Assembly (NCBI GenBank): GCA_026417995.1
Contig: JAOACF010000004.1
Span: forward strand, 1-41,116
DNA: 41,116 nucleotides
From: Negativicutes bacterium
GTDB taxonomy: Bacteria > Bacillota > Negativicutes > Sporomusales > JAOACF01
Direction: 5' to 3'
Shown here: piece by piece, positions 13,646-38,712 of the stretch
Numbering within the stretch: position 1 is the first letter of the stretch
Layout: the number at the start of each line of letters is the position of its first letter
Program-made: the position numbers and the translations under genes
The notes under the pieces: generated by a model
What the model saw: only the letters and a program-made list of their open reading frames with translations
Told to the model about the DNA's origin: nothing
Databases searched by the model: none

Positions 13646-14674
13646 TTACGTTTCATCCGGCGGGCTGCAGGATTGACGCACCACCAGCTCGGGTTCAAGT
13701 ATTACGGTTTGCGGATCAGCCTCCGAACCCTCAAGCCTAGCTTGCAAGAGGCGGGCCGCGTATGCGCCCATCATCCGGGTGCACGCCGAAACGGTCGTAA
13801 TCTTAGGGCTGAAGATCGCCGCTTCGGGAATATCGTCGAAGCCGACAATGGCGATATCTTTACCGGGAACCAGCCCCAGTTCGCGCATTTTCATCATGAC
13901 GCCGATCGCGATTGTGTCGTTATAGCAGAAAGCGGCGGTAGGCAGCGGGGATACTTTAAGCAGCTTTTGAATCACTTCAATGCCGCCCTCGCGTGTGGCC
14001 GGGCTTTCAAATACAAGAGAGTTGTCGACTGTCAGGCCTGCGGCAAGGTGGGCGCTGTCAAAGCCTTGTTTGCGTCCCTGCCAGGAGGATAGCTTGGAAT
14101 AGCCGCCCAGAAAGGCAATGCTGCGGTGCCCTTTTTTTATCAAATATTCGGCGGCAATTTGCCCGCCCTTCACATTATCTATGCCCACATAATCGCATTC
14201 CGCTCCCCGGAGTGTTCTGTTCACCAAAACTACCGGAATATCCCGGCTTAAGATCCGGTTAACCGTTTCGCTGTCGCTGCCGGGGGCCGCCGACAAGATG
14301 ATGCCGCCAACCCGGTGCTCGAGCATGGTAGACAACAGGCGTTCCTGAATCGCCGGCGAATCGAATGTCGTCCCCAGAATTACCGTTTTGCCGAACTTGT
14401 CCAGTTCCTGGTGGATACCTACCAGTAATTCGGAATAAAACGGGTTGGCAAGCTCCATAATGATCAGGCCAACCGTCGTTGAGTCCCGGGAACGCAGATT
14501 GGCGGCGATCCGATCATAAACATAACCAAGCTCCTGCATCGATGCCAGCACCTTATCGCGGGTAGCTTTGGCGATATTCGGGCTGCCGCGCAGAGCCAGC
14601 GAAGCGGTCGCGCGCGACACGCCGGCATGCTCGGCGACATCCAGCAATGTAACATGGCGCTTTTTTTGTTTCAA
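13646..14674 (-). CDS. LacI-family transcriptional regulator
   Basis: VTLLDVAEHAGVSRATASLAL HTH, A..LR hinge and VGFDD. Likely TTG start at 14674 after SD AGGTGA; the ORF track starts at 14683. Confidence 0.92.
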   Translation of the reverse strand: MKQKKRHVTLLDVAEHAGVSRATASLALRGSPNIAKATRDKVLASMQELGYVYDRIAANLRSRDSTTVGLIIMELANPFYSELLVGIHQELDKFGKTVILGTTFDSPAIQERLLSTMLEHRVGGIILSAAPGSDSETVNRILSRDIPVVLVNRTLRGAECDYVGIDNVKGGQIAAEYLIKKGHRSIAFLGGYSKLSSWQGRKQGFDSAHLAAGLTVDNSLVFESPATREGGIEVIQKLLKVSPLPTAAFCYNDTIAIGVMMKMRELGLVPGKDIAIVGFDDIPEAAIFSPKITTVSACTRMMGAYAARLLQARLEGSEADPQTVILEPELVVRQSCSPPDET

Positions 14675-14847
14675 TATAATCACCTAATTCATAAGGCTGA
14701 TAACCAACAGGATTTTCAGATAATTACAAACCAATTATATAATACCACAGGTATTGTTAACAATCATGCTAATTTGCCGAATTTTAGAAACAAAATTCGG
14801 CATAATATGTGAAAAAAATCACTTAATCTGAATAATCAGAAATTAGC

Positions 14848-15001: not shown

Positions 15002-15997
15002 GTGATCACAACGTTCGAGTTATATTTGGATAGGCCTGACGAACTGAAGCTGAGAGAAGCTGCGCCGCTTCCAGCCTTGCAAGCTAACGAGGTTAAACTT
15101 AAAGTGATCTATGGCGGAATATGCGGTTCAGATCTTAGGGTCTATAAGGGATTAATCAGCTATGCAAAGTACCCGATCCGGCCCGGGCATGAAGTATTGG
15201 GCGTCATCGTCGAAGCCGGCTCTGCCGTTTCCTATCCGGTCGGTACAAGGGTTGCGGTTTTCCCCAATACGTTTTGCGGAACCTGTGAGTTCTGCCAGAG
15301 CGGCAAGACCAATATCTGTAAGCACAAACAGCCGCTGGGGGTAGCAATTGACGGCGTTTTTGCCCAGGAAGTCGTGCTTGAGGCAAAGTACGTTGTTCCG
15401 GTGCCTGATGCGATGGCTAATGAACGGGCAATACTGATCGAACCATTCGCCGTAACTGTCCATGCCCTTAAAAAAGCCAATATCACCAAAGGAACTACGG
15501 TTGCCATTGTAGGCGGCGGGACGGAAGGTTTGCTGTCGGTTGCCCTGGCGCTTCATTTAGGCGCCGCAGTAACCGTAATCGACATTAATCCGGCCAAGTT
15601 GGCACTGGCGAAAAAGCTCGGCAATGTTGCTGCGCTGCAGCCGCATGAAGTTAAAGATCAGGTGTTTGACGTAGTCGTCGAAGCGGCTGGCGTAAAAGCG
15701 GCAATTGAACAGGCCATGCAGCTTGTCAAACCTGGCGGCGCCATGATTGCGCTGGGCATTACCGGAGATCCTGTCAATCTATATCCGATTCACATTGTCC
15801 GCAGCGAGATAACCATCTATGGGACAATTATCTATACGCTGAAGGATTTTGCCGCTGCCATTCAATATCTCAACGATCCCGCTTTTTACGTTGACCCGAT
15901 TGTATCAATGATTGTTCCTTATACTGGCTACCGGCAGGCTTTTGCCGACGCGCTTTCGGGAAAGTACGCCAAAATCGTGCTGGACTTTCAGGACTAA
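15002..15997 (+). CDS. Zn-dependent medium-chain dehydrogenase (copy 1)
   Basis: CGSD, GHE, a structural-Zn CxxCxxCx7C motif, EP and a Rossmann GGGTEG. The start codon is uncertain (GTG 15002 or ACG 15011). Confidence 0.88.
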   Translation: MITTFELYLDRPDELKLREAAPLPALQANEVKLKVIYGGICGSDLRVYKGLISYAKYPIRPGHEVLGVIVEAGSAVSYPVGTRVAVFPNTFCGTCEFCQSGKTNICKHKQPLGVAIDGVFAQEVVLEAKYVVPVPDAMANERAILIEPFAVTVHALKKANITKGTTVAIVGGGTEGLLSVALALHLGAAVTVIDINPAKLALAKKLGNVAALQPHEVKDQVFDVVVEAAGVKAAIEQAMQLVKPGGAMIALGITGDPVNLYPIHIVRSEITIYGTIIYTLKDFAAAIQYLNDPAFYVDPIVSMIVPYTGYRQAFADALSGKYAKIVLDFQD

Positions 15998-16048
15998 GTT
16001 TTTTGAAGTAGAGCTATTAGCTAAAATTTGCGAGAGGGGCAAGAAGAA

Positions 16049-17065
16049 GTGAAAAAAGTATTGAGTTTAATCAGTTTAGTGTTAATTGCCGGTCTGGTGC
16101 TTGCCGGCTGCTCCGGGCAAAAAGACGCAGGGGAGAAAAAAGCCGGTCCCAAGGTTATGAAATTAGGCATTGTTACCAACAAAGACAGGTCGCTTACCAA
16201 GGGTCTCGTTAAATTTGCCGAAATTGTCGAAAAAGAAACAGGCGGTTCAATTAAAGCCGAGGTGTTTGCCGACGGCGTCCTGGGCGGTGACCGCCAGGTA
16301 ATTGAAGCGCTACAGATGGGAACTGTTCACGGAACTGCGGTATCCACCGGCGTAGTCGCTGCATTTGCCCCGCGCTTTGACGCATTCGACCTGCCGTTCC
16401 TGTTCAAGGACAAGCAGACCGCCTTCAAGGTGTTTGACGGCCCGATCGGGCAAGAGGTGCTCGGCGATCTTCCCAAGGCCAAGCTGATTGGTCTGGCGTA
16501 CTGGGAAAACGGGTTCAGGCATCTGACCAATAATAAACGGGAAGTAAAAACTGCCGAAGATATTAAGGGTCTCAAAATCCGCACCCTGGAAAGCAAGGTT
16601 CACGTCGAGGCTTGGAAAACCTTAGGCGCAAATCCTACACCGATGTCCTTCTCCCAGCTTTACACCGCGCTGGAGCAGAGCGTTGTTGACGGACAGGAAA
16701 ACCCGTACGGCAACGTTGTGGCCAGCAAATTCAACGAAGTGCAAAAATACCTGACCAACACCGGCCACATTTATAACGCCAATGTATTCTTAGTAAGCAA
16801 GCCTTTCTGGGATTCCCTCACCGAGAAAGAGCGTGAAGCCATTAAGAAGGCAGCAATCGAAGCCAGAGATTATCAGCGTCAATTGAATGAAAAAGAAGAT
16901 CAAGACAGTGTCGCCATTCTGAAAGAAAAAGGCATGAAAATAACCGATCTTAATCCGGGCGAAAAAGAAAAAATGCAGCAGATGCTGCAGCCGCTCTACC
17001 AGCAAGTTGCGAAAACGGTTGGTGGCGATTTGGTCGACCGCATTGTAGCCGCAACCAAGCAATAG
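16049..17065 (+). CDS. dctP: TRAP transporter substrate-binding lipoprotein
   Basis: Lipobox LAGC, NGFR, GLKIR and VDGQENP. GTG at 16049 follows SD GAGAGGGG. Confidence 0.92.
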   Translation: MKKVLSLISLVLIAGLVLAGCSGQKDAGEKKAGPKVMKLGIVTNKDRSLTKGLVKFAEIVEKETGGSIKAEVFADGVLGGDRQVIEALQMGTVHGTAVSTGVVAAFAPRFDAFDLPFLFKDKQTAFKVFDGPIGQEVLGDLPKAKLIGLAYWENGFRHLTNNKREVKTAEDIKGLKIRTLESKVHVEAWKTLGANPTPMSFSQLYTALEQSVVDGQENPYGNVVASKFNEVQKYLTNTGHIYNANVFLVSKPFWDSLTEKEREAIKKAAIEARDYQRQLNEKEDQDSVAILKEKGMKITDLNPGEKEKMQQMLQPLYQQVAKTVGGDLVDRIVAATKQ

Positions 17066-17125
17066 CTTTATACGCATAGCTTTTGGCCAACCCGTATCGC
17101 TCCAGGTAATTTGCCCGGGAATTGA

Positions 17126-17172
17126 AGCAAATAATTCTTAAGGAGGATCGTCTTCCTTAAGAATTATTTGCT
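17126..17172. repeat. 22-bp-arm hairpin between dctP and dctQ
   Basis: agcaaataattcttaaggagga-tcg-tcttccttaagaattatttgct, with one G:U pair. Confidence 0.8.
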
Positions 17173-17228
17173 GAAAAGGGACAAACTGGAACTGGATGCC
17201 AATTTAATCCTTATGGAGGATACACACT

Positions 17229-17786
17229 ATGAAACAGCTACAGCAAGCAGAGAGCCTGGTAGAGAAGTTGTTTAGCGCTGTGATGGCAGTTTTTTTGGCG
17301 CTCATGGGCATCTTCATTTTCGGCAATGTATTCTTGCGCTACTTCTTCAATTCCGGGATTACCTGGGCGGAAGAAATGTCCCGGTTTCTCTTTGTCTGGA
17401 TTGTTTTTATGGGCGCCATCGGGGCGCTGAAAGATAATAACCATCTTGGATTTACTTCTTTAGTGCAGAAACTGCCCCCTCTCCCGAAGAAAATCTGCTT
17501 CATTATCAGCAATCTCCTCGTTTTAAGCTGTTTAGGGATATTTCTCGAAGGCAGCATCATGATGACATCAATGACGACAGATACTCTTTCGCCGGCAACC
17601 GGTCTGCCGCTGGCGTTCATGTACGGCATTGGCATTATCTCCAGCATCGGCATGGGAATAGTGGTTTGCTACAATTTGTACAAGGCTATTTTTGTCAAAG
17701 GCGCGATTGATAAATTGGTCATTTTGAAGGAATCGGAGGACGAGGTCGCAATGGAGCAGCAAGCTAAGGAAGAGGTGAAAGCATGA
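17229..17786 (+). CDS. dctQ: TRAP transporter small permease
   Basis: NVFLRY, WAEE.SR and H.G motifs; about 4 TM segments. Confidence 0.9.
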   Translation: MKQLQQAESLVEKLFSAVMAVFLALMGIFIFGNVFLRYFFNSGITWAEEMSRFLFVWIVFMGAIGALKDNNHLGFTSLVQKLPPLPKKICFIISNLLVLSCLGIFLEGSIMMTSMTTDTLSPATGLPLAFMYGIGIISSIGMGIVVCYNLYKAIFVKGAIDKLVILKESEDEVAMEQQAKEEVKA

Positions 17787-19063
17787 CAGTCGCTGTATTT
17801 ATTTTGTCGCTCTGCGGCGCCATGGCGCTCGGGATGCCTATCGCTTTTGCCCTGCTTTTAAGCGGTGTGGCTCTGATGCTCCAGCTCGGCATGTTTGATG
17901 CCCGCATCTTGACCCAAAACCTGATCATTGGCTCGGACAGCTTTGCGCTTATGGCTATTCCCTTCTTTATTCTTGTTGGTGAATTAATGAATGCCGGCGG
18001 CATTTCCAAGCGAATTATCAATTTTGGTTTGGCCCTTGTCGGTCATATCCGCGGCGGCTTGGGTTATGTGGCAATTATGACGGCGTTTATCTTTGCCGGC
18101 TTGTCCGGCTCGGCCGTTGCCGATACGGCTGCTTTAGCCGCAATCATGGTGCCGATGATGGCCGATGCCGGCTACGAAAAAAGCCGCTCGGCGGCGCTGA
18201 TTGGCTCAGGCTCCATTGTAGCGCCGATTTTGCCGCCCAGTATTCCGTTCATTATCTTCGGCTCGATCAGCGGCGTGTCGATCATGAAGCTGTTCATGGC
18301 CGGCCTTCTGCCGGGGGCGATGATAGCCGTTAGTTTGGCGATTACGTGGTGGTATATGGCCAGAAAGAAAAATGTAAAAGTATATCCGCGTAAATCTTTC
18401 AAAGAAATTCTGATTGCCACTAAAGAAGCAAGCTGGGCGCTTGCTCTGCCTATTCTTATCATGGTTGGCATCAAAGGCGGCGTCGTTACCCCGACCGAAG
18501 CGGCTGTAGCTGCAGTTTTTTATACTTTGTTCCTTTGTTTTGTGGTTTATCGCCAACTGACATTTAAGGATCTGACCAAAATTCTCATTTCCGCAGCGAA
18601 AACGACAAGCGTCATTATGTTCTTGATTGCGGCTGCCATGGTTTCGTCCTGGCTGATTGCCATTGCCAATATTCCGGCGTCTATCGCTTCCTGGCTGGAG
18701 CCGTACATGGGCAGCAAAATCCTGTTAATGATAGCCATCAACATTCTCGTATTTATTGTCGGCACAGCGATGGACTTAACGCCCACGGTTCTGATTTTAA
18801 CACCGGTCCTTATGCCGATTATCACTAAGGCTGGCATTGATCCGGTATACTTTGGCGTCGTATTTATCCTGAACAATGCGATCGGCCTCTTGACACCGCC
18901 GGTGGGAACAGTGCTCAATGCAGCATGCGGGGCAGGCAAGGTGCTGATGGATGACCTCATGCGGGATGTTATGCCCTTCCTGATCGTTGAGACCATTGTG
19001 TTAATACTGTTAATTTTGTTCCCCGATATTGTGCTTGTACCGCTTAAATGGATGTTAGGCTAA
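17783..19063 (+). CDS. dctM: TRAP transporter large permease
   Basis: AIPFF, SGSAVAD, PPSIP, TPTEA and GLLTPPVG. Confidence 0.93.
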   Translation: MTVAVFILSLCGAMALGMPIAFALLLSGVALMLQLGMFDARILTQNLIIGSDSFALMAIPFFILVGELMNAGGISKRIINFGLALVGHIRGGLGYVAIMTAFIFAGLSGSAVADTAALAAIMVPMMADAGYEKSRSAALIGSGSIVAPILPPSIPFIIFGSISGVSIMKLFMAGLLPGAMIAVSLAITWWYMARKKNVKVYPRKSFKEILIATKEASWALALPILIMVGIKGGVVTPTEAAVAAVFYTLFLCFVVYRQLTFKDLTKILISAAKTTSVIMFLIAAAMVSSWLIAIANIPASIASWLEPYMGSKILLMIAINILVFIVGTAMDLTPTVLILTPVLMPIITKAGIDPVYFGVVFILNNAIGLLTPPVGTVLNAACGAGKVLMDDLMRDVMPFLIVETIVLILLILFPDIVLVPLKWMLG

Positions 19064-21431: not shown

Positions 21432-21447
21432 ACAAAGGAGAAATACA

Positions 21448-23316: not shown

Positions 23317-23382
23317 ATATCAATTTCGTATAGGGGTTAGACAATATAAGTATTTTTCATATAAAAAACTGTTTGCTATAAT
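23317..23382 (+). promoter_or_regulatory. LysR box plus extended -10 promoter of the lyase-ThDP operon
   Basis: ATA-N9-TAT at 23317-23331; TGcTATAAT at 23374-23382. Confidence 0.55.
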
Positions 23383-23431: not shown

Positions 23432-24373
23432 ATGAGCGCCGGGATAAACGCATCACAATGGCCGTCCCATGTAATCGTGTGTGAAGTGGGCCCCCGCGAT
23501 GGGCTGCAAAACGAGAAAACCATGTTTTCCGTAGAGCAGAAAGTCGAACTTATCGAGCGGTCAGTTGAGGCCGGAGCAAAAATTATCGAAATCGGCTCAT
23601 TTGTACATCCGAAAGCTGTACCGCAAATGGCGGATACTGACGCAGTCGCCAAAAAAATTAAGCAAATCCCAGGAGTGGAATATCGCGCTTTGGTGCTCAA
23701 CCTGAAAGGCCTGGAGCGGGCCGAAGCCGCCGGTTTGAAAAAAGCCAAATTAACGGCATCGGCAAGCCGGGCGCATTCACTGGCGAACATCAATAAAACT
23801 CCGGAAGAAGTCGTGCGCGGTTTTAGTGATTGTGCAAACTTCGCGGCGGCGCACGGCATGGAGTTATCCGGCGCGATATCAACTGCCTTTGGCTGTCCTT
23901 TTGAAGGCCGCGTGCCGCTGGAGCAGGTGCTGTCCGTTATTGCCTGTTTCCGAGAGATCGGCGTTAAGGAACTGTCTTTATCCGATACAACCGGCATGGC
24001 CAACCCCCGGCAGGTATACGACTATTGCCAGAAAGTAAAGGCTGAATTTCCGGACATTACCTGGGTGCTGCATTTCCATAACACCAGAGGCATGGGGCTG
24101 GCCAACGTCATAGCCGGCATGATGGCGGGGATGGACCGGTTTGACGCCTGCTTCGCCGGGTTGGGCGGCTGTCCGTTTGCGCCTGGCGCTACCGGCAATA
24201 TTGCTACCGAGGACCTTATCCATATGCTGCACGAAATGGGCGTATCGACCGGCTACGACCTCGACAAGGTGCTGGCGATAGGCCGCAGCGTGCGTGAAAT
24301 CATTGGCCATGAGACATCAAGCTTTATCCTCAAGGCCGGCAAGTGCAGCGACCTGGTTAAGGGCAAAGAGTAG
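23432..24373 (+). CDS. HMG-CoA lyase-family (DRE-TIM) acyl-CoA lyase
   Basis: EVGPRDGLQNE, SFVHPKAVPQMAD, FGCPFEG, DTTG, HFHNTRG and GLGGCPFAPGATGN. Confidence 0.88.
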   Translation: MSAGINASQWPSHVIVCEVGPRDGLQNEKTMFSVEQKVELIERSVEAGAKIIEIGSFVHPKAVPQMADTDAVAKKIKQIPGVEYRALVLNLKGLERAEAAGLKKAKLTASASRAHSLANINKTPEEVVRGFSDCANFAAAHGMELSGAISTAFGCPFEGRVPLEQVLSVIACFREIGVKELSLSDTTGMANPRQVYDYCQKVKAEFPDITWVLHFHNTRGMGLANVIAGMMAGMDRFDACFAGLGGCPFAPGATGNIATEDLIHMLHEMGVSTGYDLDKVLAIGRSVREIIGHETSSFILKAGKCSDLVKGKE

Positions 24374-24539
24374 ACCGCCAACATTACCTTTCTTGGCCTT
24401 TCGGTCACAGTAACAGGCGCCGTATCGTTTGAAACAATGCAGCAGGCGGTAACAAAACGCGTGCCGCCCGCTGCCCCTGCGCATCGGTATGAAGCCGTTT
24501 AAAAATAGCGTCTGATCAATAAACATGAGGGGGATTCGG

Positions 24540-26303
24540 ATGAAGGATTTAGTAGCAAACCAGCTTGTTAAGTATCTGGAAAAACGCGGCATCAGGCATA
24601 TCTTTGGCTTATGCGGACACACCAACATCGCAGTGCTTGCCGCGCTGTCCAAAAGCGAAAAAATTCGCTTTATTAATGTACGGCATGAACAAATTGCGTC
24701 TCATGCCGCAGACGGCTACGCCCGTGTTACCAAAAAAGCATCCGTTGTTCTCAGCCACTTGGGCCCGGGTCTTACCAACGCCGCCACCGGCGTTGCCAAC
24801 GCCGCACTTGACTCCATTCCGATGGTAGTTATCGCCGGCGACGTACCCAGCCATTATTTCGGCAAGCATCCGCATCAGGAAGTCAACCTCCATGCTGACG
24901 CCTCCCAGTGGGAAATCTATCGTCCGTTTGTCAAGCGCGCCTGGCGGGTAGACCGTCCTGACCTGCTGCCGGAAATCATGGAAAAGGCCTTTACGCTGGC
25001 CGAGTCCGGCCGTCCCGGCCCGGTTCTTGTTGACGTTCCCATGGATATCTTCTCCCAAGAGATTGATGTTGCTTTGTTCGAGCGCCTTGATCTTAATGCC
25101 AAGACCATTCATAAGCCTACCCTTGACGAAGGGGTTGCGGCGCAAATCGTCAAGACGCTGGGTGAAGCCAAGAGCCCGGTTATTTATGCGGGCGGCGGCG
25201 TAATCCTGGCCGATGCGGCGCAAGAACTCAAAGAATTTGTCGATCATATGGGCATTCCGGTTGCGCACTCGCTTATGGGCAAAGGCGTGGTGCCTGACGA
25301 TCATCCGCTGGTGCTGGGCATGACCGGTTTCTGGGGTACCAAGTTCATCAATGATACCTGCCGCAGTGCCGACTATATCCTTGGCCTGGGCACCAGTTTC
25401 AAGGAGGCGGATTCGAGCTCCTGGTATCCGGAGTATACCTTTAACTTCCCGCCGACCAAGCTCATCCATATCGACATTGACCCGAGCGAAATCGGCCGCA
25501 ACTATCCGGTGGAAATCGGCGCCGCCGTTGACCTGAAACAAGCGCTGACCGTACTGAACCGGGTAGCTAAAAAACTCTATCCGCAAGGCAAGAAAAATAC
25601 CGCTATGGAGGAGGCTATTGCCAAAGCCCGCGCCGAATTCAAGGACAGCAACAAGGCGCTGGAAGAAAGCGACGCTTTCCCGATGATGCCGCAGCGGATT
25701 CTGGCCGATGTGCGTGCCGTACTGCCGCGCAATGCCATTATTACCACTGATGTGGGTTGGAACAAAAACGGCGTTGGCCAACAGTTCCCCATCTACGAAC
25801 CAGGGTCGATTCTCACTCCCGGCGGCTACGCTACCATGGGCTTTGGTTCACCGGCGGCTTTAGGCGCGAAGATCGCGGCTCCTGACCGGGTGGTTGTCTC
25901 GCTGATTGGCGACGGCGGCTTTGGCCAAAATCCGGCAGTTTTAGCGACTGCGGCTGTTGAAAATATCCCGGCCGTTTTTGTAATTATGAACAACCGGGCA
26001 TTCGGCACGATCGCCGGTTTGGAGAAAGCGCACTATGATACTACTTTTGGCACCCTCTTTGAGAAAGACGGTCAGCCTTACTCGCCTGACTACGCCGCTA
26101 TTGCCAAAGCATACGGTGTAGAGGGCGAAAAGATCCAGTCCGCGGCCGAATTTAAGCCGGCGCTTGAGCGGGCAATCAAGTCCAATAAGCCGTATGTGCT
26201 TGATGTGACTATGATCAACAACCCGGTGCCCACCGCCGGTCACTGGAATATCATGGACATCTACTCCCCCGGCAAAAAAGTGCACCATGTAAGCACCAAC
26301 TAA
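24540..26303 (+). CDS. ThDP-dependent enzyme (acetolactate synthase fold), possible cyclic 1,2-dione hydrolase
   Basis: FGLCGHTN, RHEQ, SHLGPG, GRPGPV and the GDGG...NN ThDP motif. ATG at 24540 follows GAGGGGG. Confidence 0.85.
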   Translation: MKDLVANQLVKYLEKRGIRHIFGLCGHTNIAVLAALSKSEKIRFINVRHEQIASHAADGYARVTKKASVVLSHLGPGLTNAATGVANAALDSIPMVVIAGDVPSHYFGKHPHQEVNLHADASQWEIYRPFVKRAWRVDRPDLLPEIMEKAFTLAESGRPGPVLVDVPMDIFSQEIDVALFERLDLNAKTIHKPTLDEGVAAQIVKTLGEAKSPVIYAGGGVILADAAQELKEFVDHMGIPVAHSLMGKGVVPDDHPLVLGMTGFWGTKFINDTCRSADYILGLGTSFKEADSSSWYPEYTFNFPPTKLIHIDIDPSEIGRNYPVEIGAAVDLKQALTVLNRVAKKLYPQGKKNTAMEEAIAKARAEFKDSNKALEESDAFPMMPQRILADVRAVLPRNAIITTDVGWNKNGVGQQFPIYEPGSILTPGGYATMGFGSPAALGAKIAAPDRVVVSLIGDGGFGQNPAVLATAAVENIPAVFVIMNNRAFGTIAGLEKAHYDTTFGTLFEKDGQPYSPDYAAIAKAYGVEGEKIQSAAEFKPALERAIKSNKPYVLDVTMINNPVPTAGHWNIMDIYSPGKKVHHVSTN

Positions 26304-26315
26304 GGAGGAAGAACC

Positions 26316-27137
26316 GTGGCCCCACAATTTTCGTTAGCCTACCTTACCGTTCCCGGTTGTCCTCCGCCTGAACAAACATATATCGCCGCCCGGGCCGGCT
26401 ATGATTTCGTCAGTCTTCGTCCCATTCTGATGGGCCTTCCCGGAGAGCCTAATTTCGCGCTGGCGGAAAATAAAGAACTGTATCAACAAACGAAAAAAGC
26501 GCTTGCCGCTACCGGCCTTAAGCTGCTGGACATTGAGCTGGCGCGTATCCATGACGGCATGGATCCGAAAAAATATCTCCCTGCCATGGAAATCGCCGCT
26601 GAGCTTGGCGGACGCCATGTTCTGAGCAGCATTTGGACCAATGACCGCAGCTACTATATCGAAAAATTTGGCGAGGTTTGTGATTTGGCTAAGCAATTTG
26701 GCCTGACGGTTGAGCTCGAATTCGTGCCAATTGCCAGCGTTAACAATCTCGCCGGCGCGCTTGACGTGCTTCGCAGCGTAAAGCGTGACAATGCCGGCCT
26801 GATGATCGACGTTCACCACTTCCATCGTTCGCGTGACAGGGTGGAGGACCTGGATGCCGTTCCCCGCGAGTGGTTCCGTTTTGTCCACCTTTGCGATGCG
26901 CCGGCAGAAATACCGACGGAAAAAGATGAAATGACCCGCATTCTGCGGGAAGCCCGCCTGTATGTCGGCGAGGAAGGCGGCATTGATGTCGCCGCTATTA
27001 TTAACCGCATACCTGAAGTGCCTTACTCGATCGAGTTGCCTAATCTTAAGCGCATGAAGGAAATGGGTTTCGCCGAGCACGCGTTTCGCTGCATCGAAGC
27101 GGCCAAGGCTTATCTCGCGGCTCGCCCGCGGGCTTAA
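26316..27137 (+). CDS. Xylose-isomerase-like TIM-barrel metalloenzyme (IolE/AsbF/sugar epimerase superfamily)
   Basis: Metal-ligand pattern ELEF, DVHH, HLCD, R..vGE and SIE. Confidence 0.8.
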   Translation: MAPQFSLAYLTVPGCPPPEQTYIAARAGYDFVSLRPILMGLPGEPNFALAENKELYQQTKKALAATGLKLLDIELARIHDGMDPKKYLPAMEIAAELGGRHVLSSIWTNDRSYYIEKFGEVCDLAKQFGLTVELEFVPIASVNNLAGALDVLRSVKRDNAGLMIDVHHFHRSRDRVEDLDAVPREWFRFVHLCDAPAEIPTEKDEMTRILREARLYVGEEGGIDVAAIINRIPEVPYSIELPNLKRMKEMGFAEHAFRCIEAAKAYLAARPRA

Positions 27138-27173
27138 AGCGACAGAAATTAAAGACCAAACGGAGGGAAAAAC

Positions 27174-28586
27174 ATGGCAGACGAACTAACCAAAGAACAA
27201 CAAGCCGAGCTTGATGCGGCTTTTGAAAAAGCGCAGAAAGCGCTTAAAATCATTGAAAGCTATGATCAGGCCAGGGTTGACCGTCTCTGTCAGGCGGTTG
27301 CCTGGGCGGTGGCCAACAAAAAGACTTTCACCCGTCTGGTGGCAATGGGTATTGAAGAAAGCGGTCTGGGAGATCCGGAAAGCCGCATGAACAAGCGCTT
27401 CAAAATCCGCGGCGTGCTCCGCGACGCGCTGCGGCAAAAGAGTATCGGCATTATTGAGGAGATACCGGAAAAGGGCATCGTAAAATATGCTAAACCCGTA
27501 GGCATTATTGCCTCGATAGTTCCCACTACCAACCCGGACCTTACTCCCGCCGGTACCGCCATTTACGCCATCAAGGCGCGCGACGTCGTTATCTTCTCGC
27601 CGCACCCCCGTTCCAAAAAGACTACTTTTGAAACGGTGCGCCTGATGCGGGAAGCGTTGGAGCGGGAAGGCGCCCCTGCTGACATTTTGCAATGCCTGAC
27701 TCAGGTGAATATTCCCATGTCCAAAGCGCTTATGGCCCGCGCCGATCTCGTGCTGGCCACCGGCGGCAAAGATATGGTAAAAGCTGCTTATAGTTCGGGA
27801 ACGCCTGCCTACGGCGTCGGCGCCGGCAATGCGACCATGATTATTGACGAAACGGCTGACGTTAAGGAAGCGGCCCGCAACACTATGCTGAGCAAGACTT
27901 CCGACTTTGGCTCAGGCTGTTCGGCGGACGGCAATCTTATTATCCATGAGAGCATCTTTGACAAAATGCTGGAAGCGCTTGTACAAGAAGGCGGCTATCT
28001 GGCGAATGAAGAGGAAAAAGCCAAGCTGCGTGCGGTAATGTGGGATGAAGAGGGACACCGCTTGCCCAAAACCGTGGCGTTGGCACCGCAGAAGATGGCT
28101 GAGATTGCCGGATTCAGCATTCCGGCTGACCGCAAGTTTATCATCGTAAGGGGCGACGGTATCGGCAAACAGTATCCTTTCTCCGGCGAAAAGCTCACCA
28201 CACTGCTTGCCGTGTATAAGTATGAGGGCGAATTCGAGAATGCGCTGGATATGATGCGGGCCATCTACGAAGTCGGCGGTAAAGGACACTCGGTCGGCAT
28301 CTACTCCTTTAATGACGACCATATTCATCGACTGGCTCTTGCCGCGCCGGTAAGCCGGATTATGGTCCGTCAGCCCCAGTCCAAAGCCAACGCCGGAGCG
28401 TTCAACAATGGCATGCCGATGACTTCCAGTTTGGGCTGCGGCACCTGGGGCGGCAACATAACCTCCGAAAACGTTCATCTCAAACATTACATGAACACCA
28501 CCTGGGTATCGCGTCCGATTCCGGAGGACAGACCTTCTGACGCTGAACTGTTCGGCGAATTCTATGACCCGGAATGTGAAAAGTAA
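27174..28586 (+). CDS. CoA-acylating aldehyde dehydrogenase (EutE/SucD/SauS-like)
   Basis: PTTNP, SPHP, ATGG, GVGAGN, SK..D.G.GCS (catalytic Cys), GEKL, GHS and LGCGTWGGN. Confidence 0.88.
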   Translation: MADELTKEQQAELDAAFEKAQKALKIIESYDQARVDRLCQAVAWAVANKKTFTRLVAMGIEESGLGDPESRMNKRFKIRGVLRDALRQKSIGIIEEIPEKGIVKYAKPVGIIASIVPTTNPDLTPAGTAIYAIKARDVVIFSPHPRSKKTTFETVRLMREALEREGAPADILQCLTQVNIPMSKALMARADLVLATGGKDMVKAAYSSGTPAYGVGAGNATMIIDETADVKEAARNTMLSKTSDFGSGCSADGNLIIHESIFDKMLEALVQEGGYLANEEEKAKLRAVMWDEEGHRLPKTVALAPQKMAEIAGFSIPADRKFIIVRGDGIGKQYPFSGEKLTTLLAVYKYEGEFENALDMMRAIYEVGGKGHSVGIYSFNDDHIHRLALAAPVSRIMVRQPQSKANAGAFNNGMPMTSSLGCGTWGGNITSENVHLKHYMNTTWVSRPIPEDRPSDAELFGEFYDPECEK

Positions 28587-28593: not shown

Positions 28594-28633
28594 TAAAAGA
28601 TAAGTCTGAGCAATTGCTCAGACTTATCTTTTA
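28594..28633. terminator. Perfect 40-bp palindrome acting as a bidirectional terminator
   Basis: taaaagataagtctgagcaa|ttgctcagacttatctttta. Includes the lysR stop codon. Confidence 0.85.
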
Positions 28634-29491: not shown

Positions 29492-29652
29492 GGGCATGTC
29501 TCCTTGTTTCCAGACTTTTAACATATATAATACAAATAAACTAGATATTTTTAATATAGTATGTACTCTGATATAATCATACCTGAGATTAAACGGTAAA
29601 TCAATTGTTTATCTGTAGCGGTGATTTCGCTGGGTGAGAGGGGGATTTTAGC

Positions 29653-30927: not shown

Positions 30928-30947
30928 TTCACTAATAAATAAATGAA

Positions 30948-31217: not shown

Positions 31218-31351
31218 ATTTATAGTATTTGGAGGATGGTAGCATGGTAAAATTAACAGTGATGGCCAATCAGAAGTTTGTCCGGAAACCGATAGGGATG
31301 CCCTATTTGGCCGGAGCGCTTCAGCAACTTGCAGCAAATGAGAGGAAGGCA

Positions 31352-34063: not shown

Positions 34064-35113
34064 ATGGTGTCAGGGAAAAAACTATTCAGTTTGTTAGCGC
34101 TTATGGTGTTTGCCGGCATACTGGTACTCGGCTGCGGCGGACAGAAGAAAGAAGCAGGGTCAAAGACGGCAGGCGGCTACCCGGCAAATAACATCAACGG
34201 TATAATTACCTGGGGTGCCGGCGGCGTCATGGACAATGTTTCCCGCTCCATCACACCGATGGTCGAAAAGGAACTGGGCAAAAGCATTATTCTCGCCAAC
34301 AAGCCGGGCGCAACGGGCGCTATCGCCATGCAGTACGTTCACGACCAAAAAAATGACGGCTATACCTTGTTGTACGGTGCGGAAAACCCTCAGCTTTACA
34401 AAGTACTGGAGTTATCCAAACTTGATTATGACGATTTTGAGCCAATCATGCTGTTCGGCAAAGGCGTAGCGGTGCTTGTCGCCGAGAAGTCCTCGCCGCT
34501 TAACAGCTATGAAGATCTTGTCAAGGCCCTGAGGCAAAATGCCGGCAAATTCAATATGGGCGCAACCGGTGCCGGCGGTTTGCCGCAGGTGGCTACAGCG
34601 CTTATCCTCCAAAAGGAAAATGTGAAGGCAAACTTTGTCAATTATGACGGTGAAGGCCCAATGGTAACGGCGTTGCTGGGCAAGCAGGTAGACGCAGCAG
34701 CGATCAGCGTTGGGACAGTGGCCCAATATATAAGAACCGGCGATCTCAAAGCTTTGGCGTTAATCGCTAACTCCCCGGTGGACATCCTGCCTAACGTGCC
34801 GGTACTGGGCGAGATGAAGCCAGAGTATAAGGAGAGTTTGAAAACATTTGGTCCGTTCTACGGAGTATTTGTAAAGAAAGGAACGGCGGAAGACGTTATC
34901 AAACGGCTGAGCGAAGCCTTCGGCAAGGGTTATCAGGATCCCAAATTCCAGGAATTCATGAAGAAAAGCGGTATTATACCGCTGGGTATCAGCGGACAAG
35001 AGGCCAAACAGTATCTGGTAACCTGGCGTGCACAGCATTCCTGGTTGCTGCATGACATCGGCGCGGCCAAAATTTCGCCGGAAAGAGTCGGCATTCCCAG
35101 ACCGGGCAAATAG
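34064..35113 (+). CDS. tctC: Tripartite tricarboxylate transporter substrate-binding lipoprotein (copy 1)
   Basis: Lipobox LGC, WGAGG..D..SR, NKPGATG, DGYTLL and ALLGKQVD. Confidence 0.88.
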   Translation: MVSGKKLFSLLALMVFAGILVLGCGGQKKEAGSKTAGGYPANNINGIITWGAGGVMDNVSRSITPMVEKELGKSIILANKPGATGAIAMQYVHDQKNDGYTLLYGAENPQLYKVLELSKLDYDDFEPIMLFGKGVAVLVAEKSSPLNSYEDLVKALRQNAGKFNMGATGAGGLPQVATALILQKENVKANFVNYDGEGPMVTALLGKQVDAAAISVGTVAQYIRTGDLKALALIANSPVDILPNVPVLGEMKPEYKESLKTFGPFYGVFVKKGTAEDVIKRLSEAFGKGYQDPKFQEFMKKSGIIPLGISGQEAKQYLVTWRAQHSWLLHDIGAAKISPERVGIPRPGK

Positions 35114-35174: not shown

Positions 35175-35231
35175 GGCGCGTAAATATAAGCGCCAATTTT
35201 TCACAAACTCTGTTTGCGGCAGGAGGATTAT

Positions 35232-35987
35232 ATGAATCATTTAATTGGTAAAACAAAACAACCACTTGTTTGTACCCCTTTGGTCGCAAAAAGCAAACAG
35301 GCGATTTTACAGGAACTGAGAGAGGTCCTGATTAAAAAGCCCGATATTGTCGAGTGGCGGGCAGATTTCTTTGCAGCAATTGCAAATACCGCAGAGGTTG
35401 TTGCCGTTGCTAACAGTATTAAAGAGATTGCCGGCGAAATACCGGTTATTTTTACGATCCGCTCGCTGCGCGAAGGAGGCCAGCCGATACCGCTCACGGC
35501 TGAACAGGCAATCGAATTAAACATTGCCATTTGCCAAAATACTAAGATAGAATACGTCGATTGCGAGCTAAGCAATCTGCCTGCTCACATCGAGCGCCTG
35601 CAAAGCGCCGCGGCAGTCACCGGAACCAAGATCATCGGCTCCTATCACAATTTTAGTTTCACGCCTGAAAGGGAAGAACTGGCGCAAAAGTTTGCCGCCG
35701 CCGAAGCCTACCGGCTGGATGTAGCCAAAGTTGCCGTGATGCCGCAAAATCTGCAGGATGTGCTAACCATGCTGAGTGCAACGCTTGAAGCCAAAGCCAA
35801 GCATAAAATACCCCTGATTACAATGTCTATGGGCAAATATGGCGCAATCAGCCGGATGGTCGGCGGCGTTTTTGGCTCGTCGCTAACCTTTGGCGTGGGG
35901 TCTCAGGCGTCTGCGCCCGGGCAGGTGCCGATTGAAGATCTCAAGACGGTTCTAGCCATTGTGGAAAAAACGATAGGTGGCGAATAG
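35232..35987 (+). CDS. aroD: Type I 3-dehydroquinate dehydratase
   Basis: DIVEWRAD, FTIRS..EGG, SYHNF..TP, AKVAVMP, MSMG...ISR and SAPGQ. ATG at 35232 follows AGGAGG. Confidence 0.93.
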   Translation: MNHLIGKTKQPLVCTPLVAKSKQAILQELREVLIKKPDIVEWRADFFAAIANTAEVVAVANSIKEIAGEIPVIFTIRSLREGGQPIPLTAEQAIELNIAICQNTKIEYVDCELSNLPAHIERLQSAAAVTGTKIIGSYHNFSFTPEREELAQKFAAAEAYRLDVAKVAVMPQNLQDVLTMLSATLEAKAKHKIPLITMSMGKYGAISRMVGGVFGSSLTFGVGSQASAPGQVPIEDLKTVLAIVEKTIGGE

Positions 35988-35988
35988 C

Positions 35989-36978
35989 ATGCAGGAACTA
36001 TATCTGGAAAAGCCCGGTGAGCTCACGCTGCGGGTAAGTTCGCCGCTCCCGGCGCCGCAAAGCAACGAAGTAAAAATCAAAATTTTATACGCGGGACTAT
36101 GTGGTTCTGATCTTCGGGTTTATAAAGGAAGCATTGCCTATGCAAAATACCCGTCCCGTCCCGGACATGAAGCGCTCGGTGTTGTCGTTGCGGCCGGAAG
36201 CGCCTCATCCTTAAAGGCCGGCGATAAAGTTGTCATTTTCCCCAATACCTTCTGCGGGCAATGTAAACTTTGCCGTCAGGGACAGACAAATATCTGCCGG
36301 GAAAAGAAGTCATTTGGCATTAATGCTCCGGGTGTATTTGGCAGTGAGGTTATTGCCGACGCCAAGTTTGTTGTAAAAATTCCTCAATATCTGCCGGATG
36401 AAAAGGCGGTTCTGGTCGAGCCGTTTGCCGTGACTGTGCATGCGCTCAAAAAAGCGGCGATCACTCCCGAAACAACGGTGGCAGTGGTAGGCTGCGGCAC
36501 AGAAGGATTGCTTGCAATAGCGCTGGCTAATTACCTCGGCGGCAAGATCACGGCAGTAGACATTAATCCGGCAAAGCTTCAAATGGCCAGAAGCTTCGGT
36601 GATATTCGCACATTGCTGCCGCAAGACGTTGAGGGAGAAGCGTTTGATGTTGTCATTGAGGCAGCTGGGGTGAAGCTGTCAATTGAGCAGGCAATGCGGT
36701 TGGTACGGCCGGGCGGCAGGTTGATTGTCATAGGGATTACGGGCGAGCAGGTTGATTTTCCGGTAATCCATGTCGTGCGCAACGAAATTACTATTTTTGG
36801 CACTATTATCTATACAATAGAAGATTTTAAGGATGCGATAACCTATTTGTCCGATCCGGCCTTTCCTGCTGATGGCGTATTGTCGAAAATAGTTCCTTAT
36901 ACTGAATTCAGCCAAGCTTATGCTGACGCCCTTTCAGGCAATTATGCCAAGATTGTGCTGGATTTTAGGGGAGCATAG
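35989..36978 (+). CDS. Zn-dependent medium-chain dehydrogenase (copy 2, paralog of 15002..15997)
   Basis: CGSDLRVYKG, RPGHE, CGQCKLC...C, EPFAVTVHALKKA and GCGTEG. ATG lies 1 nt after the aroD stop. Confidence 0.88.
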   Translation: MQELYLEKPGELTLRVSSPLPAPQSNEVKIKILYAGLCGSDLRVYKGSIAYAKYPSRPGHEALGVVVAAGSASSLKAGDKVVIFPNTFCGQCKLCRQGQTNICREKKSFGINAPGVFGSEVIADAKFVVKIPQYLPDEKAVLVEPFAVTVHALKKAAITPETTVAVVGCGTEGLLAIALANYLGGKITAVDINPAKLQMARSFGDIRTLLPQDVEGEAFDVVIEAAGVKLSIEQAMRLVRPGGRLIVIGITGEQVDFPVIHVVRNEITIFGTIIYTIEDFKDAITYLSDPAFPADGVLSKIVPYTEFSQAYADALSGNYAKIVLDFRGA

Positions 36979-37099: not shown

Positions 37100-38128
37100 A
37101 TGTCGAAAAAATTTGCCTGGGCAGTATTAGTTCTGGTGACGGTTGCTCTGATCGCAGCCGGCTGCGGCGGCACAACTGCCAAAAAAGATGCCTTCCCGAC
37201 AACTAACATTAACGGTACGATTGCCTGGGGCGCCGGCGGCGGCACTGACAACGTCATGCGTACCCTTGCGCCGATTGCTGAGAAGCAACTTGGCAAATCA
37301 ATCGTTCTCTCTAACAAGCCCGGCGCGGCCGGTGCTATTGCTACCCAGTATGTTTATGACCAAAAAGCCGACGGTTACAACCTGCTCATGAATGCGGAAA
37401 ATCCGCAGCTCTATCAGATCCTCGGCCTTTCCAAGCTGTCTTATAACGACTTTGAGCCTATTTTGCTGGCAGTTCAAGGTTCTACCGTTATTGTCGTACC
37501 GAAAGATTCTCCGTATAAAACGCTTGATGACCTCCTCAAGGCGGCAAAAGCCAACCCCGGCAAACTGACCATCGGTATCAGCGGTGTTGGCGGCCAGCCT
37601 TACGTGACTGCTGCTATCCTGAAAAAGGTGGAGGGTGTAACCTTTAACCCCGTAACTTTTGACGGCGACGGCCCGCTGGTGACCGCACTTCTTGGCAAGC
37701 AGCTCGACGTTACCGGCTTGGCTGTCGGTGCGGCCACTCAGTACATTAAAAACGGCGACCTGCGGGCGCTGGCCGTAATGGCTACCAAGCAAAATCCCGC
37801 TATCCCTGAAGTTCCGGCAATCACCCAACTGAATCCCGCTTACCAGGATGTGCTGAAAGCCTCGGGCTTCTTCTATGGCGTATGGGTTAAGAAGGGTACG
37901 CCGGAAGACGTTATCAAGAAATTGACTGATGCGTACATGGTAGCGTACAAAGATCCTAAATTCCAGGAATATGCGCAAAAGAACGGCTTGACGCTGATGG
38001 GGCTCACCGACAAGGAAGCAAAAGACTTTGCCGCTCAGTGGCAATCGCAAATGGCCTGGCTGATTTATGAGGCCGGCGGCGCAAAAGAATCGCCCGAGAA
38101 GTTTAACATTCCGAAACCCGCGAAGTAA
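37100..38128 (+). CDS. tctC: TTT substrate-binding lipoprotein (copy 2)
   Basis: Lipobox AAGC, WGAGGGTD..MR, NKPGAAG and DGYNLL. Confidence 0.88.
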   Translation: MSKKFAWAVLVLVTVALIAAGCGGTTAKKDAFPTTNINGTIAWGAGGGTDNVMRTLAPIAEKQLGKSIVLSNKPGAAGAIATQYVYDQKADGYNLLMNAENPQLYQILGLSKLSYNDFEPILLAVQGSTVIVVPKDSPYKTLDDLLKAAKANPGKLTIGISGVGGQPYVTAAILKKVEGVTFNPVTFDGDGPLVTALLGKQLDVTGLAVGAATQYIKNGDLRALAVMATKQNPAIPEVPAITQLNPAYQDVLKASGFFYGVWVKKGTPEDVIKKLTDAYMVAYKDPKFQEYAQKNGLTLMGLTDKEAKDFAAQWQSQMAWLIYEAGGAKESPEKFNIPKPAK

Positions 38129-38135
38129 AGAGCGC

Positions 38136-38162
38136 GAGGGAGGAACCTCAAGTTCCTCCCTT
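38136..38162 (+). repeat. Intercistronic hairpin after tctC2
   Basis: gagggaggaac-ctcaa-gttcctccctt. Confidence 0.65.
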
Positions 38163-38196
38163 AATTATCGATTTTGTTTGAACGGAGGGCCAAAGC

Positions 38197-38691
38197 ATGT
38201 CCGAACTGCCACAAGCACAAACCGCCCACACGCCAAAGGGGAAACCGCAGAAAAAAGGCGAGCTTAAGATGCTTGCTCTCCTCTTTGTCATTTTCGGGGC
38301 CTTGTTTCTTGATTCGCTGCGCCTTGACGGCGCGTTTCAGGGACACTACAGCGGCCCCGGCGGGATACCCCAACTGGTTTCCGCCTTGATGCTTGTATTA
38401 ATAGTTGTTGCTGCCGTCAATCTGCTCAGACAGGGGTATAAAGAGGGGACATTCCAAGACATTGTTACATTCTTGTTTGATAAGGACGTAGTAATCCTGC
38501 TGATTATGGTCACGTTATACGGATTGCTGGTGGAAACGCTGACCTTTATTCCTACCAGTATCCTCTTTCTTGTCGGCACAATGTACCTCCTGGAACGCAA
38601 AAACCTGATCAGGAAGATTGTAATTTCCGTGAGCACGGTAGCTGTATTGGTACTGATCTTTTCAACGATCTTCCAGGTCGTACTGCCTTAG
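38197..38691 (+). CDS. tctB: TTT small membrane subunit
   Basis: 164 aa hydrophobic protein with GPG.IP and a C-terminal F.V.LP, between tctC and tctA. Confidence 0.85.
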   Translation: MSELPQAQTAHTPKGKPQKKGELKMLALLFVIFGALFLDSLRLDGAFQGHYSGPGGIPQLVSALMLVLIVVAAVNLLRQGYKEGTFQDIVTFLFDKDVVILLIMVTLYGLLVETLTFIPTSILFLVGTMYLLERKNLIRKIVISVSTVAVLVLIFSTIFQVVLP

Positions 38692-38712
38692 CGGGGAAGG
38701 AGGAAACACACG

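Follow-up and report, generated by a model that had tools for sequence, protein, structure and literature searches.

Organization of the locus

The subject of this analysis is a four-gene operon in a stretch of 41,116 nt of contig JAOACF010000004.1 (assembly GCA_026417995.1), from a Negativicutes bacterium; the whole stretch is called the window below. The operon occupies positions 23432-28586 and encodes a protein of the 3-hydroxy-3-methylglutaryl-CoA (HMG-CoA) lyase type, a thiamine diphosphate (ThDP)-dependent enzyme that resembles acetolactate synthase (ALS), a xylose-isomerase-like TIM barrel and a CoA-acylating aldehyde dehydrogenase (ALDH). The next subsections describe the four proteins and their relatives in other genomes, and build up to a proposed role in the catabolism of quinate and shikimate.

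The four open reading frames (ORFs) lie on the forward strand, separated by intergenic gaps of 151, 12 and 36 nt (Table 1), and are closed by a perfect palindrome, an arrangement described in the original prediction and on which the ORF list and a repeat search agree. The palindrome has no loop, is found between the stop codon of the ALDH gene and a convergent LysR gene, and overlaps the stop codon of the latter; a perfect dyad of 40 nt is far beyond chance expectation. As for the ThDP gene, the ATG at 24540 is likely its start, in preference to the first codon of the longest ORF at 24525, because it is preceded by the Shine-Dalgarno sequence GAGGGGGA and because the database relatives are 587 aa long.

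A promoter candidate was identified upstream of the lyase gene, and sigma-70-like sites are not enriched in the region searched, with four found versus 4.6 expected from shuffled sequences. The same prediction had placed the operon behind a LysR-boxed promoter, which was not substantiated: no inverted repeat of at least 8 nt (seed 6) was found in the promoter region of the module, where the only feature of this kind is a weak, AT-rich dyad near 23349-23370 (AGTATTT-N8-AAAAACT, one mismatch). Moreover, the nearest LysR gene (28631-29524) is downstream of the module, convergent to it and divergently paired with a major facilitator superfamily (MFS) gene, and homologues of the LysR or MFS gene accompany the module in 0 of the 80 related loci described below.

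Table 1. Features of the operon and of the genes in the window that may be associated with it
Feature	Position	Strand	Basis or remark
Sigma-70-like promoter candidate	23354..23382	+	TTTTCA-17-TATAAT, TG before the -10, 5' of the lyase gene; consensus match only
HMG-CoA-lyase-type lyase, proposed homocitryl-CoA lyase	23432..24373	+	PF00682, NF004283, PDB matches
ALS-like ThDP enzyme, proposed ring-opening 3,4-dione hydrolase	24540..26303 (longest ORF from 24525)	+	
Xylose-isomerase-like TIM barrel, proposed dione-forming 3-dehydroquinate 4,5-dehydratase	26316..27137	+	PF01261, fold matches
CoA-acylating ALDH	27174..28586	+	NCBIfam, PDB matches
Perfect 20+20 nt palindrome, probable bidirectional terminator between convergent genes	28594..28633	.	
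LacI-family regulator	13646..14683	-	Pfam; syntenic with the module in related Firmicutes
ZnADH1, Zn-dependent polyol dehydrogenase, proposed quinate/shikimate dehydrogenase	15002..15997	+	Homologue in 23/80 loci
TRAP transporter DctP, DctQ, DctM, proposed quinate/shikimate uptake	16028..19063	+	Pfam, synteny
TctC-family solute receptor	34064..35113	+	
Type I 3-dehydroquinate dehydratase (dehydroquinase), proposed 3-dehydroshikimate/3-dehydroquinate link	35214..35987	+	PF01487; TIGR01093 211 bits, cut-off 139
ZnADH2, second Zn-dependent polyol dehydrogenase	35977..36978	+	Overlaps the dehydroquinase gene by 11 nt
Tripartite tricarboxylate transporter TctC, TctB, TctA	37100..40227	+	

The ThDP-dependent enzyme

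The product of the second gene has three ThDP-enzyme domains in Pfam and contains the two motifs CGHTN and LSHLGPG, both of which had been singled out earlier and are read in the translation. The codon of the histidine in the first motif starts at 24618; this residue is His32 in the longest ORF and His27 when counted from the ATG at 24540, so that the earlier numbering as His27 fits the latter start. A histidine in an N-terminal Gly-His motif is what we take to be the defining mark of the functional class of ring-opening ThDP dione hydrolases, formed by IolD of the inositol pathway and cyclohexane-1,2-dione hydrolase (CDH), and the window enzyme carries it.

The motifs were compared with those of true members of both families. 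Three IolD proteins were taken from one genome (G001), where they score 887-998 bits against the TIGR04377 cut-off of 715, and CDH was recovered from the genome of Aromatoleum diolicum 22Lin (locus L096), with 589 of 589 residues matched to PDB 2pgn (1341 bits). All three IolD proteins read FGHGN, CDH reads GHTS, and both the IolD histidine and His28 of CDH share an alignment column with His32 of the window enzyme. That column holds Gly, Ala or Ser in the ALS-, Gcl- and Xsc-like paralogues, whose first site reads PGGA, PGAG and MGSA, respectively, and whose second site reads SGPG or NGPG. Thus, the contrasts drawn in the original prediction (GHGN in IolD, GHTS in CDH, PGG in acetolactate synthases) were borne out on real sequences. 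All 78 orthologues retain His32, His78 and His123 (longest-ORF numbering), and an insertion after the invariant Gln118, together with a C-terminal extension that contains Trp, is common to the window enzyme and IolD and is absent from the ALS-like rows.

As regards family membership, the window enzyme is 32-35% identical to the ALS-like proteins, 27% to CDH and 23-25% to IolD, and a PDB search returned 194 bits to 2pgn versus 297 bits to a plant ALS, with benzaldehyde lyase also among the matches. The scores against curated models all fall below the cut-offs: 258.5 bits versus 715 for IolD (TIGR04377), 437.9 versus 538.35 for the large subunit of biosynthetic ALS (TIGR00118), whose P-G-G and S-G-P-G loops the protein lacks, 317.8 versus 620 for Xsc (NF005713) and 327 versus 791 for Gcl. 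In a tree of 12 sequences the enzyme and its orthologues form a clade of their own (support 100/100), the deep placement of which the tree does not settle, and CDH stands on a separate long branch; at 27% identity, the enzyme is thus no close relative of 2pgn. Because the A. diolicum genome carries both CDH and an orthologue that is 74% identical to the window enzyme (L036/L086), the two are distinct proteins. On the evidence of motif and context, the window enzyme would work like the IolD and CDH hydrolases, yet it is a member of neither family. The genome that supplied the IolD proteins, reached via the Priestia abyssalis locus L010, contains two copies of the orthologue (L091 and L093) in addition to the three IolD genes above the cut-off.

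The TIM barrel, the lyase and the aldehyde dehydrogenase

The TIM barrel matches PF01261 with 59.1 bits (gathering threshold 31.1), and no NCBIfam family was found for it at E <= 0.001. Its PDB matches are IolI (1e-10, 20% identity), Lmo2234 (3e-9) and AsbF (0.016), and neither a curated model nor close identity assigns it to a characterised IolE, IolI or dehydroshikimate dehydratase. The predicted structure (pLDDT 96.5) gave as top Foldseek matches IolI (1i60), Lmo2234 (2g0w), STM4435 and a fusion of a TIM barrel with a 4-hydroxyphenylpyruvate dioxygenase (HPPD) domain (5hmq), which we take to be the QuiC1 dehydroshikimate dehydratase; IolE ranked 41st and AsbF (3dx5) 46th. The substrates of these fold neighbours are all ring ketones of cyclitols or hydroaromatics. 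Of the putative metal ligands, E135, D165 and E240 are found in all 35 sequences compared and H191 in 31 of them, and the protein therefore combines the PF01261 fold with the E-D-H-E ligand pattern that presumably is typical of xylose-isomerase-like TIM barrels.

The lyase matches PF00682 (181 bits) and exceeds the cut-off of the HMG-CoA lyase subfamily NF004283 (341.4 bits versus 246). Its PDB matches are HMG-CoA lyases at 2e-74, and the translation shows the motifs R-D, H-x-H and G-G-C-P, presumably catalytic. Nevertheless, the gene context argues for a substrate other than HMG-CoA, because quinate/shikimate genes are nearby and because in other loci the lyase is replaced by the citryl-CoA-lyase family.

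The best NCBIfam match of the ALDH is SauS (NF047625; 476.2 bits, below the cut-off of 600), followed by AdhE N-terminal and EutE-type models. The protein shows full-length similarity to solved acylating ALDHs of the EutE, AdhE-N and SucD types, the PDB matches being an acetylating ALDH (5j78, 8e-96), an acylating succinate-semialdehyde dehydrogenase (8cei, 8e-89) and AdhE N-domains (about 1e-83). This assignment supports the earlier proposal that an aldehyde-acid would be captured by a CoA-acylating ALDH.

Related loci and the exchange of module genes

A scan of one genome per species returned at least 519 relatives of the ThDP enzyme, and the best 80 loci were analysed. These are the best-scoring loci and are mutually related, so that the counts given here describe the family and are not independent trials. 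The neighbours were annotated by clustering, with a GC3-filtered ORF caller, and by scanning representatives against Pfam and NCBIfam. A tblastn search with representatives then recorded which genes lie no more than 8 kb from the ThDP gene, and pairs of counts below refer to all 80 loci and to the subset of 58 whose flanks extend for 6 kb or more on each side.

The ThDP orthologues of the 80 loci are 72-86% identical to the window enzyme and span Negativicutes, Peptococcaceae-like Bacillota, Bacilli, Beta-, Alpha-, Gamma- and Deltaproteobacteria and one metagenome-assembled genome of Phycisphaerales. Because of this high conservation across phyla and the patchy presence of the gene, which occurs in 8 of 40 relatives of the same order, the distribution indicates a mobile accessory unit under strong constraint. 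The ThDP enzyme has diverged much less between phyla than its partners, the corresponding ranges being 37-81% for the lyase and 61-90% for the acylating ALDH; the homologues of the TIM barrel form two groups, with about 65-79% and 33-55% identity.

The TIM barrel accompanies the ThDP gene in 63/80 and 52/58 loci. An acylating ALDH is present in 53/80 and 43/58 and an ordinary ALDH in 18/80 and 15/58, which brings loci with either one to 67/80 and 55/58. A family III CoA-transferase is found in 17/80 and 14/58, and in the clustering census it occurs in 14 of the 18 loci with an ordinary ALDH; this pair often takes the place of the acylating ALDH. Lyases follow a similar pattern: the HMG-CoA-lyase-like gene (26/80, 23/58) and a gene of the citryl-CoA-lyase family (37/80, 25/58; NF004864, 413 bits versus a cut-off of 261) provide one or the other in 62/80 and 48/58 loci, and occur together in 1/80 and 0/58. 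The TIM barrel, an ALDH and a lyase are found jointly in 48/80 and 43/58.

Further support for the connection with shikimate-pathway intermediates, already part of the original prediction, was provided by two additional pairs of genes. Type I dehydroquinase is found in 32/80 and 24/58 loci and type II in 16/80 and 16/58, with either in 47/80 and 39/58 and both in 1/80 and 1/58. Likewise, an AroE-type shikimate/quinate dehydrogenase is present in 23/80 and 16/58 loci and a Zn-dehydrogenase in 23/80 and 19/58, again with both in 1/80 and 1/58; a dehydroquinase or an AroE-type dehydrogenase lies near the ThDP gene in 53/80. The most compact arrangement is that of Candidatus Formimonas warabiya (L005), where six tightly packed genes encode an AroE-type dehydrogenase, the lyase, the acylating ALDH, a type I dehydroquinase, the ThDP enzyme and the TIM barrel. 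In three other loci (L001, L003 and L007), the LacI, Zn-dehydrogenase and TRAP (DctPQM) genes are contiguous and lie directly 5' of the four module genes. Carboxylate transporters also recur near the ThDP gene, and tripartite tricarboxylate transporters adjoin the module in several loci.

Some loci contain a second candidate dehydratase. A two-domain QuiC-type dehydratase exists in addition to the TIM barrel in 7 loci, and about 10 betaproteobacterial loci have a split form, in which a small separate TIM barrel and an HPPD-like protein, resembling a split QuiC-type dehydroshikimate dehydratase, stand beside the module. In A. diolicum (L036:5774-7561) the split pair is inside the operon and the usual TIM barrel is about 5 kb off, on the opposite strand. 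The pair may replace the usual TIM barrel or serve a parallel protocatechuate route.

Proposed pathway

Taken together, we consider the operon to be, with fair probability, the core of an oxygen-free catabolism of quinate and shikimate that bypasses protocatechuate and gives acetyl-CoA and 2-oxoglutarate. In the first step of the proposed route, quinate would be oxidised to 3-dehydroquinate (DHQ) and shikimate to 3-dehydroshikimate, in the window by the Zn-dependent enzymes encoded at 15002 and 35977, and the dehydroquinase, here of type I (35214), would hydrate 3-dehydroshikimate to DHQ by working in reverse. The TIM barrel would then enolise DHQ and expel its C5 hydroxyl by beta-elimination, as IolE and the dehydroshikimate dehydratases do. 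Since C1-C2 is saturated, the product would be a 1,2-diketone instead of an aromatic ring, namely 1-hydroxy-3,4-dioxocyclohexane-1-carboxylate.

In the third step, the ThDP enzyme would add to the C3 carbonyl and cleave the C3-C4 bond hydrolytically, as in IolD and CDH, to release C4 as a carboxylate and C3 as an aldehyde. The resulting 2-hydroxy-2-(2-oxoethyl)glutarate, or homocitrate semialdehyde, would be converted by the acylating ALDH into homocitryl-CoA, with the thioester on the acetate arm, and the HMG-CoA-lyase-type enzyme would finally cleave this compound to acetyl-CoA and 2-oxoglutarate. The net reaction would be quinate + 2 NAD(P)+ + CoA -> acetyl-CoA + 2-oxoglutarate + 2 NAD(P)H, in which the seven carbons of the substrate are accounted for as C2 + C5.

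Among schemes that give every conserved gene a role and call for no additional one, this is the simplest. Four enzymes would suffice because DHQ already bears the tertiary C1 hydroxyl, which ends up beta to the thioester, as a Claisen-type lyase requires; DHQ is the only intermediate of the shikimate pathway with a tertiary alcohol, on the carboxylate-bearing C1, between two methylenes. The gene exchanges point in the same direction. Beside the module, dehydroquinases of two unrelated folds stand in for each other, and so do dehydrogenases of two unrelated families, which would be hard to explain if DHQ and dehydroshikimate were not real intermediates. Similarly, the almost perfect exchange between two unrelated Claisen-type lyase families, both of which perform their chemistry on 3-hydroxy-3-substituted acyl-CoA esters, suggests that the acylating ALDH delivers a citryl-CoA-like thioester, and lends support to the cleavage of homocitryl-CoA into acetyl-CoA and 2-oxoglutarate that had been predicted from the window. 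Finally, variant loci that pair an ordinary ALDH with a CoA-transferase suggest the order aldehyde, acid, CoA ester. Citryl-CoA (C6) itself was considered as an intermediate and rejected by reasoning, as one carbon would have to be lost and two more oxidations would be needed, and the module encodes no enzyme for these reactions.

Relation to known systems

The closest parallel is offered by IolE and IolD of myo-inositol degradation, in which a TIM barrel catalyses beta-elimination next to a ring ketone to form a cyclic 1,2-dione, and a ThDP enzyme with the Gly-His motif then opens the ring to an aldehyde-acid. The idea of an oxygen-free, non-aromatic analogue of the inositol pathway, formulated in the original prediction, retains its core. 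The order of a TIM-barrel dehydratase and a histidine-bearing dione hydrolase, invoked there after IolE and IolD, is supported; the TIM barrel itself is nearer to IolI and the dehydroshikimate dehydratases than to IolE. The resemblance of the ThDP enzyme to IolD is also partial, as the common insertion and C-terminal extension are set against the low identity and model score reported above. Downstream, the two routes would diverge: the inositol pathway continues with a kinase and an aldolase, whereas the proposed one is CoA-dependent, through the acylating ALDH and the lyase, and starts from a carboxylated cyclitol.

CDH of A. diolicum 22Lin likewise catalyses a ThDP-dependent hydrolytic ring opening, in which an alicyclic 1,2-dione yields an omega-oxo acid, and the histidine of its GHTS motif aligns with that of the window GHTN, in spite of the low identity and the separate branch.

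The dehydroshikimate dehydratases (AsbF, QuiC1 and the Listeria QuiC2 class) of the protocatechuate-beta-ketoadipate route share with the proposed pathway the substrates, the early enzymes (quinate/shikimate dehydrogenase and dehydroquinase) and the TIM-barrel fold, and their chemistry consists of enolisation and elimination of the C5 hydroxyl. The protocatechuate route, however, aromatises the ring and then relies on ring-cleaving dioxygenases, whereas in the proposed route the ring would remain saturated, oxygen would not be required and the end products would be acetyl-CoA and 2-oxoglutarate.

The last reaction would be a retro-Claisen release of acetyl-CoA from a 3-hydroxy-3-substituted acyl-CoA, as with HMG-CoA lyase and citryl-CoA lyase, and would differ from that of HMG-CoA lyase in its substrate, homocitryl-CoA. 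Formally, it would reverse the condensation step of homocitrate synthase, to which the family of the window lyase is related.

Alternative interpretations

Several observations weigh against the proposed pathway. In overall sequence, the ThDP enzyme is nearer to ALS than to CDH or IolD, and because of this and of the open deep placement in the tree, the histidine that it shares with the last two may be convergent. The TIM barrel is nearest, by both sequence and fold, to the isomerase IolI and not to IolE; the order of the fold matches does not tell a dehydratase from an isomerase, because IolI-like and dehydratase members have one fold and one metal site in common. Within 8 kb, a lyase is missing from 10 of the 58 loci with full flanks, the TIM barrel from 6 and a dehydroquinase from 19, and in the window an insert of 4.3 kb splits the module from its usual dehydrogenase and TRAP partners. 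A clustered dehydroquinase fits either direction of flux between dehydroquinate and dehydroshikimate, and the release of C3 as the aldehyde is assumed because only that option feeds the lyase. More generally, families, linkage and exchanges are what was observed, and every substrate and product is deduced from homology, linkage and substitution patterns.

One explanation is that the operon does belong to a quinate/shikimate route in which two of its enzymes have other roles. The TIM barrel would be an IolI-like isomerase, or would act after ring opening, and the ThDP enzyme would act directly on the alpha-hydroxyketone of dehydroquinate as an acyloin lyase, giving a dialdehyde and a hydroxylated 2-oxo acid, which is not 2-oxoglutarate. 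The rank of IolI as the top match in sequence and fold fits this idea, and so does the presence of acyloin-cleaving lyases in the superfamily, as exemplified by benzaldehyde lyase among the PDB matches. However, a reactive dialdehyde would be formed together with a product that needs further enzymes, none of which are conserved in the loci; furthermore, the invariant histidine is common to the two known dione hydrolases and is not found in the ALS-, Gcl- or Xsc-like rows, and, because isomerases and dehydratases have fold and metal site in common, the IolI rank does not establish the reaction. We regard this explanation as unlikely.

Much less room is left for the scheme first put forward for the window, in which dehydroshikimate would be reduced at its ring double bond, dehydrated to a dione and opened to 3-carboxyadipate semialdehyde, whose CoA ester would reach homocitryl-CoA through a dehydrogenase and a hydratase. 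It shares its enzyme families and end products with the proposed pathway, the histidine motif that links the ThDP enzyme to IolD and CDH is real, and shikimate-pathway genes are indeed nearby. Nonetheless, at least three further enzymes would be required. An ene-reductase, an acyl-CoA dehydrogenase with its electron-transferring flavoprotein and an (enoyl-CoA) hydratase were expected to be encoded elsewhere, and none of these kinds was found among the annotated recurrent neighbour families of the 80 loci, while compact operons of the L005 type have only a dehydrogenase, a dehydroquinase and the four module genes. The entry through reduced 3-dehydroshikimate to 3,4-dioxocyclohexanecarboxylate is therefore left unsupported, and such a route must reintroduce the C1 hydroxyl that dehydroquinate already has. 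The scheme appears improbable in this form.

Equally improbable is a conventional role of the TIM barrel as a protocatechuate-forming dehydroshikimate dehydratase, with the ThDP enzyme, the ALDH and the lyase merely co-localised for another step or substrate. Dehydroshikimate dehydratases (5hmq and AsbF) are among the structural neighbours, and another of these neighbours, Lmo2234, adjoins lmo2233 at the Listeria qui2 operon, according to a preprint (bioRxiv 10.1101/2025.04.08.647683); we infer that Lmo2234 is the QuiC2 dehydratase. Against this, the 7 loci with an extra two-domain QuiC-type dehydratase and the approximately 10 with the split form make the TIM barrel look non-redundant, the annotated Firmicute loci lack protocatechuate-processing genes, and the TIM barrel, an ALDH and a lyase accompany the ThDP gene in 43 of 58 loci with full flanks.

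The last alternative, a module unrelated to hydroaromatics, either a sulfonate route with Xsc-like and SauS-like enzymes or an acetolactate-type carboligase operon, draws on SauS as the best NCBIfam match of the ALDH and on the matches of the ThDP enzyme to ALS and Xsc models, and is very improbable given that all these scores are below the curated cut-offs (SauS 476 versus 600, Xsc 318 versus 620, ALS 438 versus 538), that a dehydroquinase or AroE-type dehydrogenase is near the ThDP gene in 53/80 loci and that no gene for an ALS small subunit occurs among the four genes or the annotated recurrent neighbours; the sulfonate reading was rejected on the scores and the hydroaromatic context. Even taken jointly, the four alternatives remain rather unlikely, and the rest of the probability beside the proposed pathway goes to a quinate/shikimate-linked function with chemistry outside the schemes considered.

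Other features of the window

The stretch between the TRAP genes and the module, 19326-23228, is an insert relative to the synteny of L001, L003 and L007, and contains a LysR gene, a gene of the Asp/Glu/hydantoin-racemase family and a transketolase split into N- and C-terminal halves. The split transketolase, the racemase, both LysR genes (LysR1 and LysR2) and the MFS gene were rejected as parts of the module, given that homologues were present in 0/80 loci (E <= 1e-20, coverage >= 60%).

The LacI-ZnADH1 intergenic region contains, at about 14880-14915, a long dyad, TAGATCGAT ... ATCGATCTA, with flanking T and A runs, just 3' of a promoter-like TTGACA/TATACT. It is a candidate LacI operator; no similar site is present upstream of the lyase gene, and a search for an operator shared by these two regions found none.

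A T-box leader (RF00230, 109.6 bits) at 30944-31194 directly precedes a shikimate kinase gene (31229-31894), which argues that this kinase is biosynthetic, under tRNA-charging control, and outside the module; a catabolic role for it is doubtful. Shikimate-kinase homologues occur within 8 kb of the ThDP gene in 10/80 loci. Aromatic amino-acid biosynthesis is also represented at 710-3067, with component II of anthranilate/aminodeoxychorismate synthase, prephenate dehydratase and a second shikimate kinase (2501-3067).

A second ThDP enzyme, Gcl-like (656 bits, cut-off 791), is encoded at 4324-7705 together with a hydroxypyruvate isomerase and a 2-hydroxy-3-oxopropionate reductase, both above their cut-offs. 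This region is probably a glyoxylate/glycerate module, with a divergent LysR gene at 3191-4102. Lastly, a cobalamin riboswitch (11320-11501) lies ahead of a gene (11563-13539) for a 658-aa protein with two CobT-type phosphoribosyltransferase repeats.

Implications

Quinate and shikimate, for which chlorogenic acids are a further source, rank with the most abundant alicyclic acids of plant origin in soil, sediments and guts, and their anaerobic use by fermenting and denitrifying bacteria has been known since the early 1990s. To our knowledge, the only well-understood bacterial route for them proceeds via protocatechuate and oxygen-dependent ring cleavage. In the full-text literature searched, which did not extend to subscription journals, the enzymes of this anaerobic use were not identified, no link was found between quinate, shikimate or dehydroquinate and ThDP-dependent ring cleavage, a step of the HMG-CoA-lyase or citryl-CoA-lyase type, or homocitryl-CoA, and the term homocitryl-CoA did not occur. 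Neither the ThDP enzyme nor the TIM barrel is represented by a model in NCBIfam release 20, and for the 120 best relatives of the ThDP enzyme the source names shown are all generic ("acetolactate synthase large subunit", "thiamine pyrophosphate-binding protein").

We lean towards the view that the pathway is widespread, horizontally mobile and previously undescribed, that its ThDP enzyme represents a third independent family of histidine-bearing ring hydrolases, that homocitryl-CoA is a new metabolite, and that the lyase and aldehyde-activation steps were each invented at least twice. Culturable carriers of the module exist among Priestia, Aromatoleum, Anaerospora and Pelosinus species, which makes the pathway directly testable. 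If it is true, a function would be assigned to thousands of genes now labelled as acetolactate synthase or thiamine pyrophosphate-binding protein, the ThDP ring-opening hydrolases would gain a third family, and homocitryl-CoA would be predicted as a metabolite. In addition, four enzymes would convert a shikimate-pathway intermediate into 2-oxoglutarate and acetyl-CoA at low cofactor cost, a conversion that could serve metabolic engineering.

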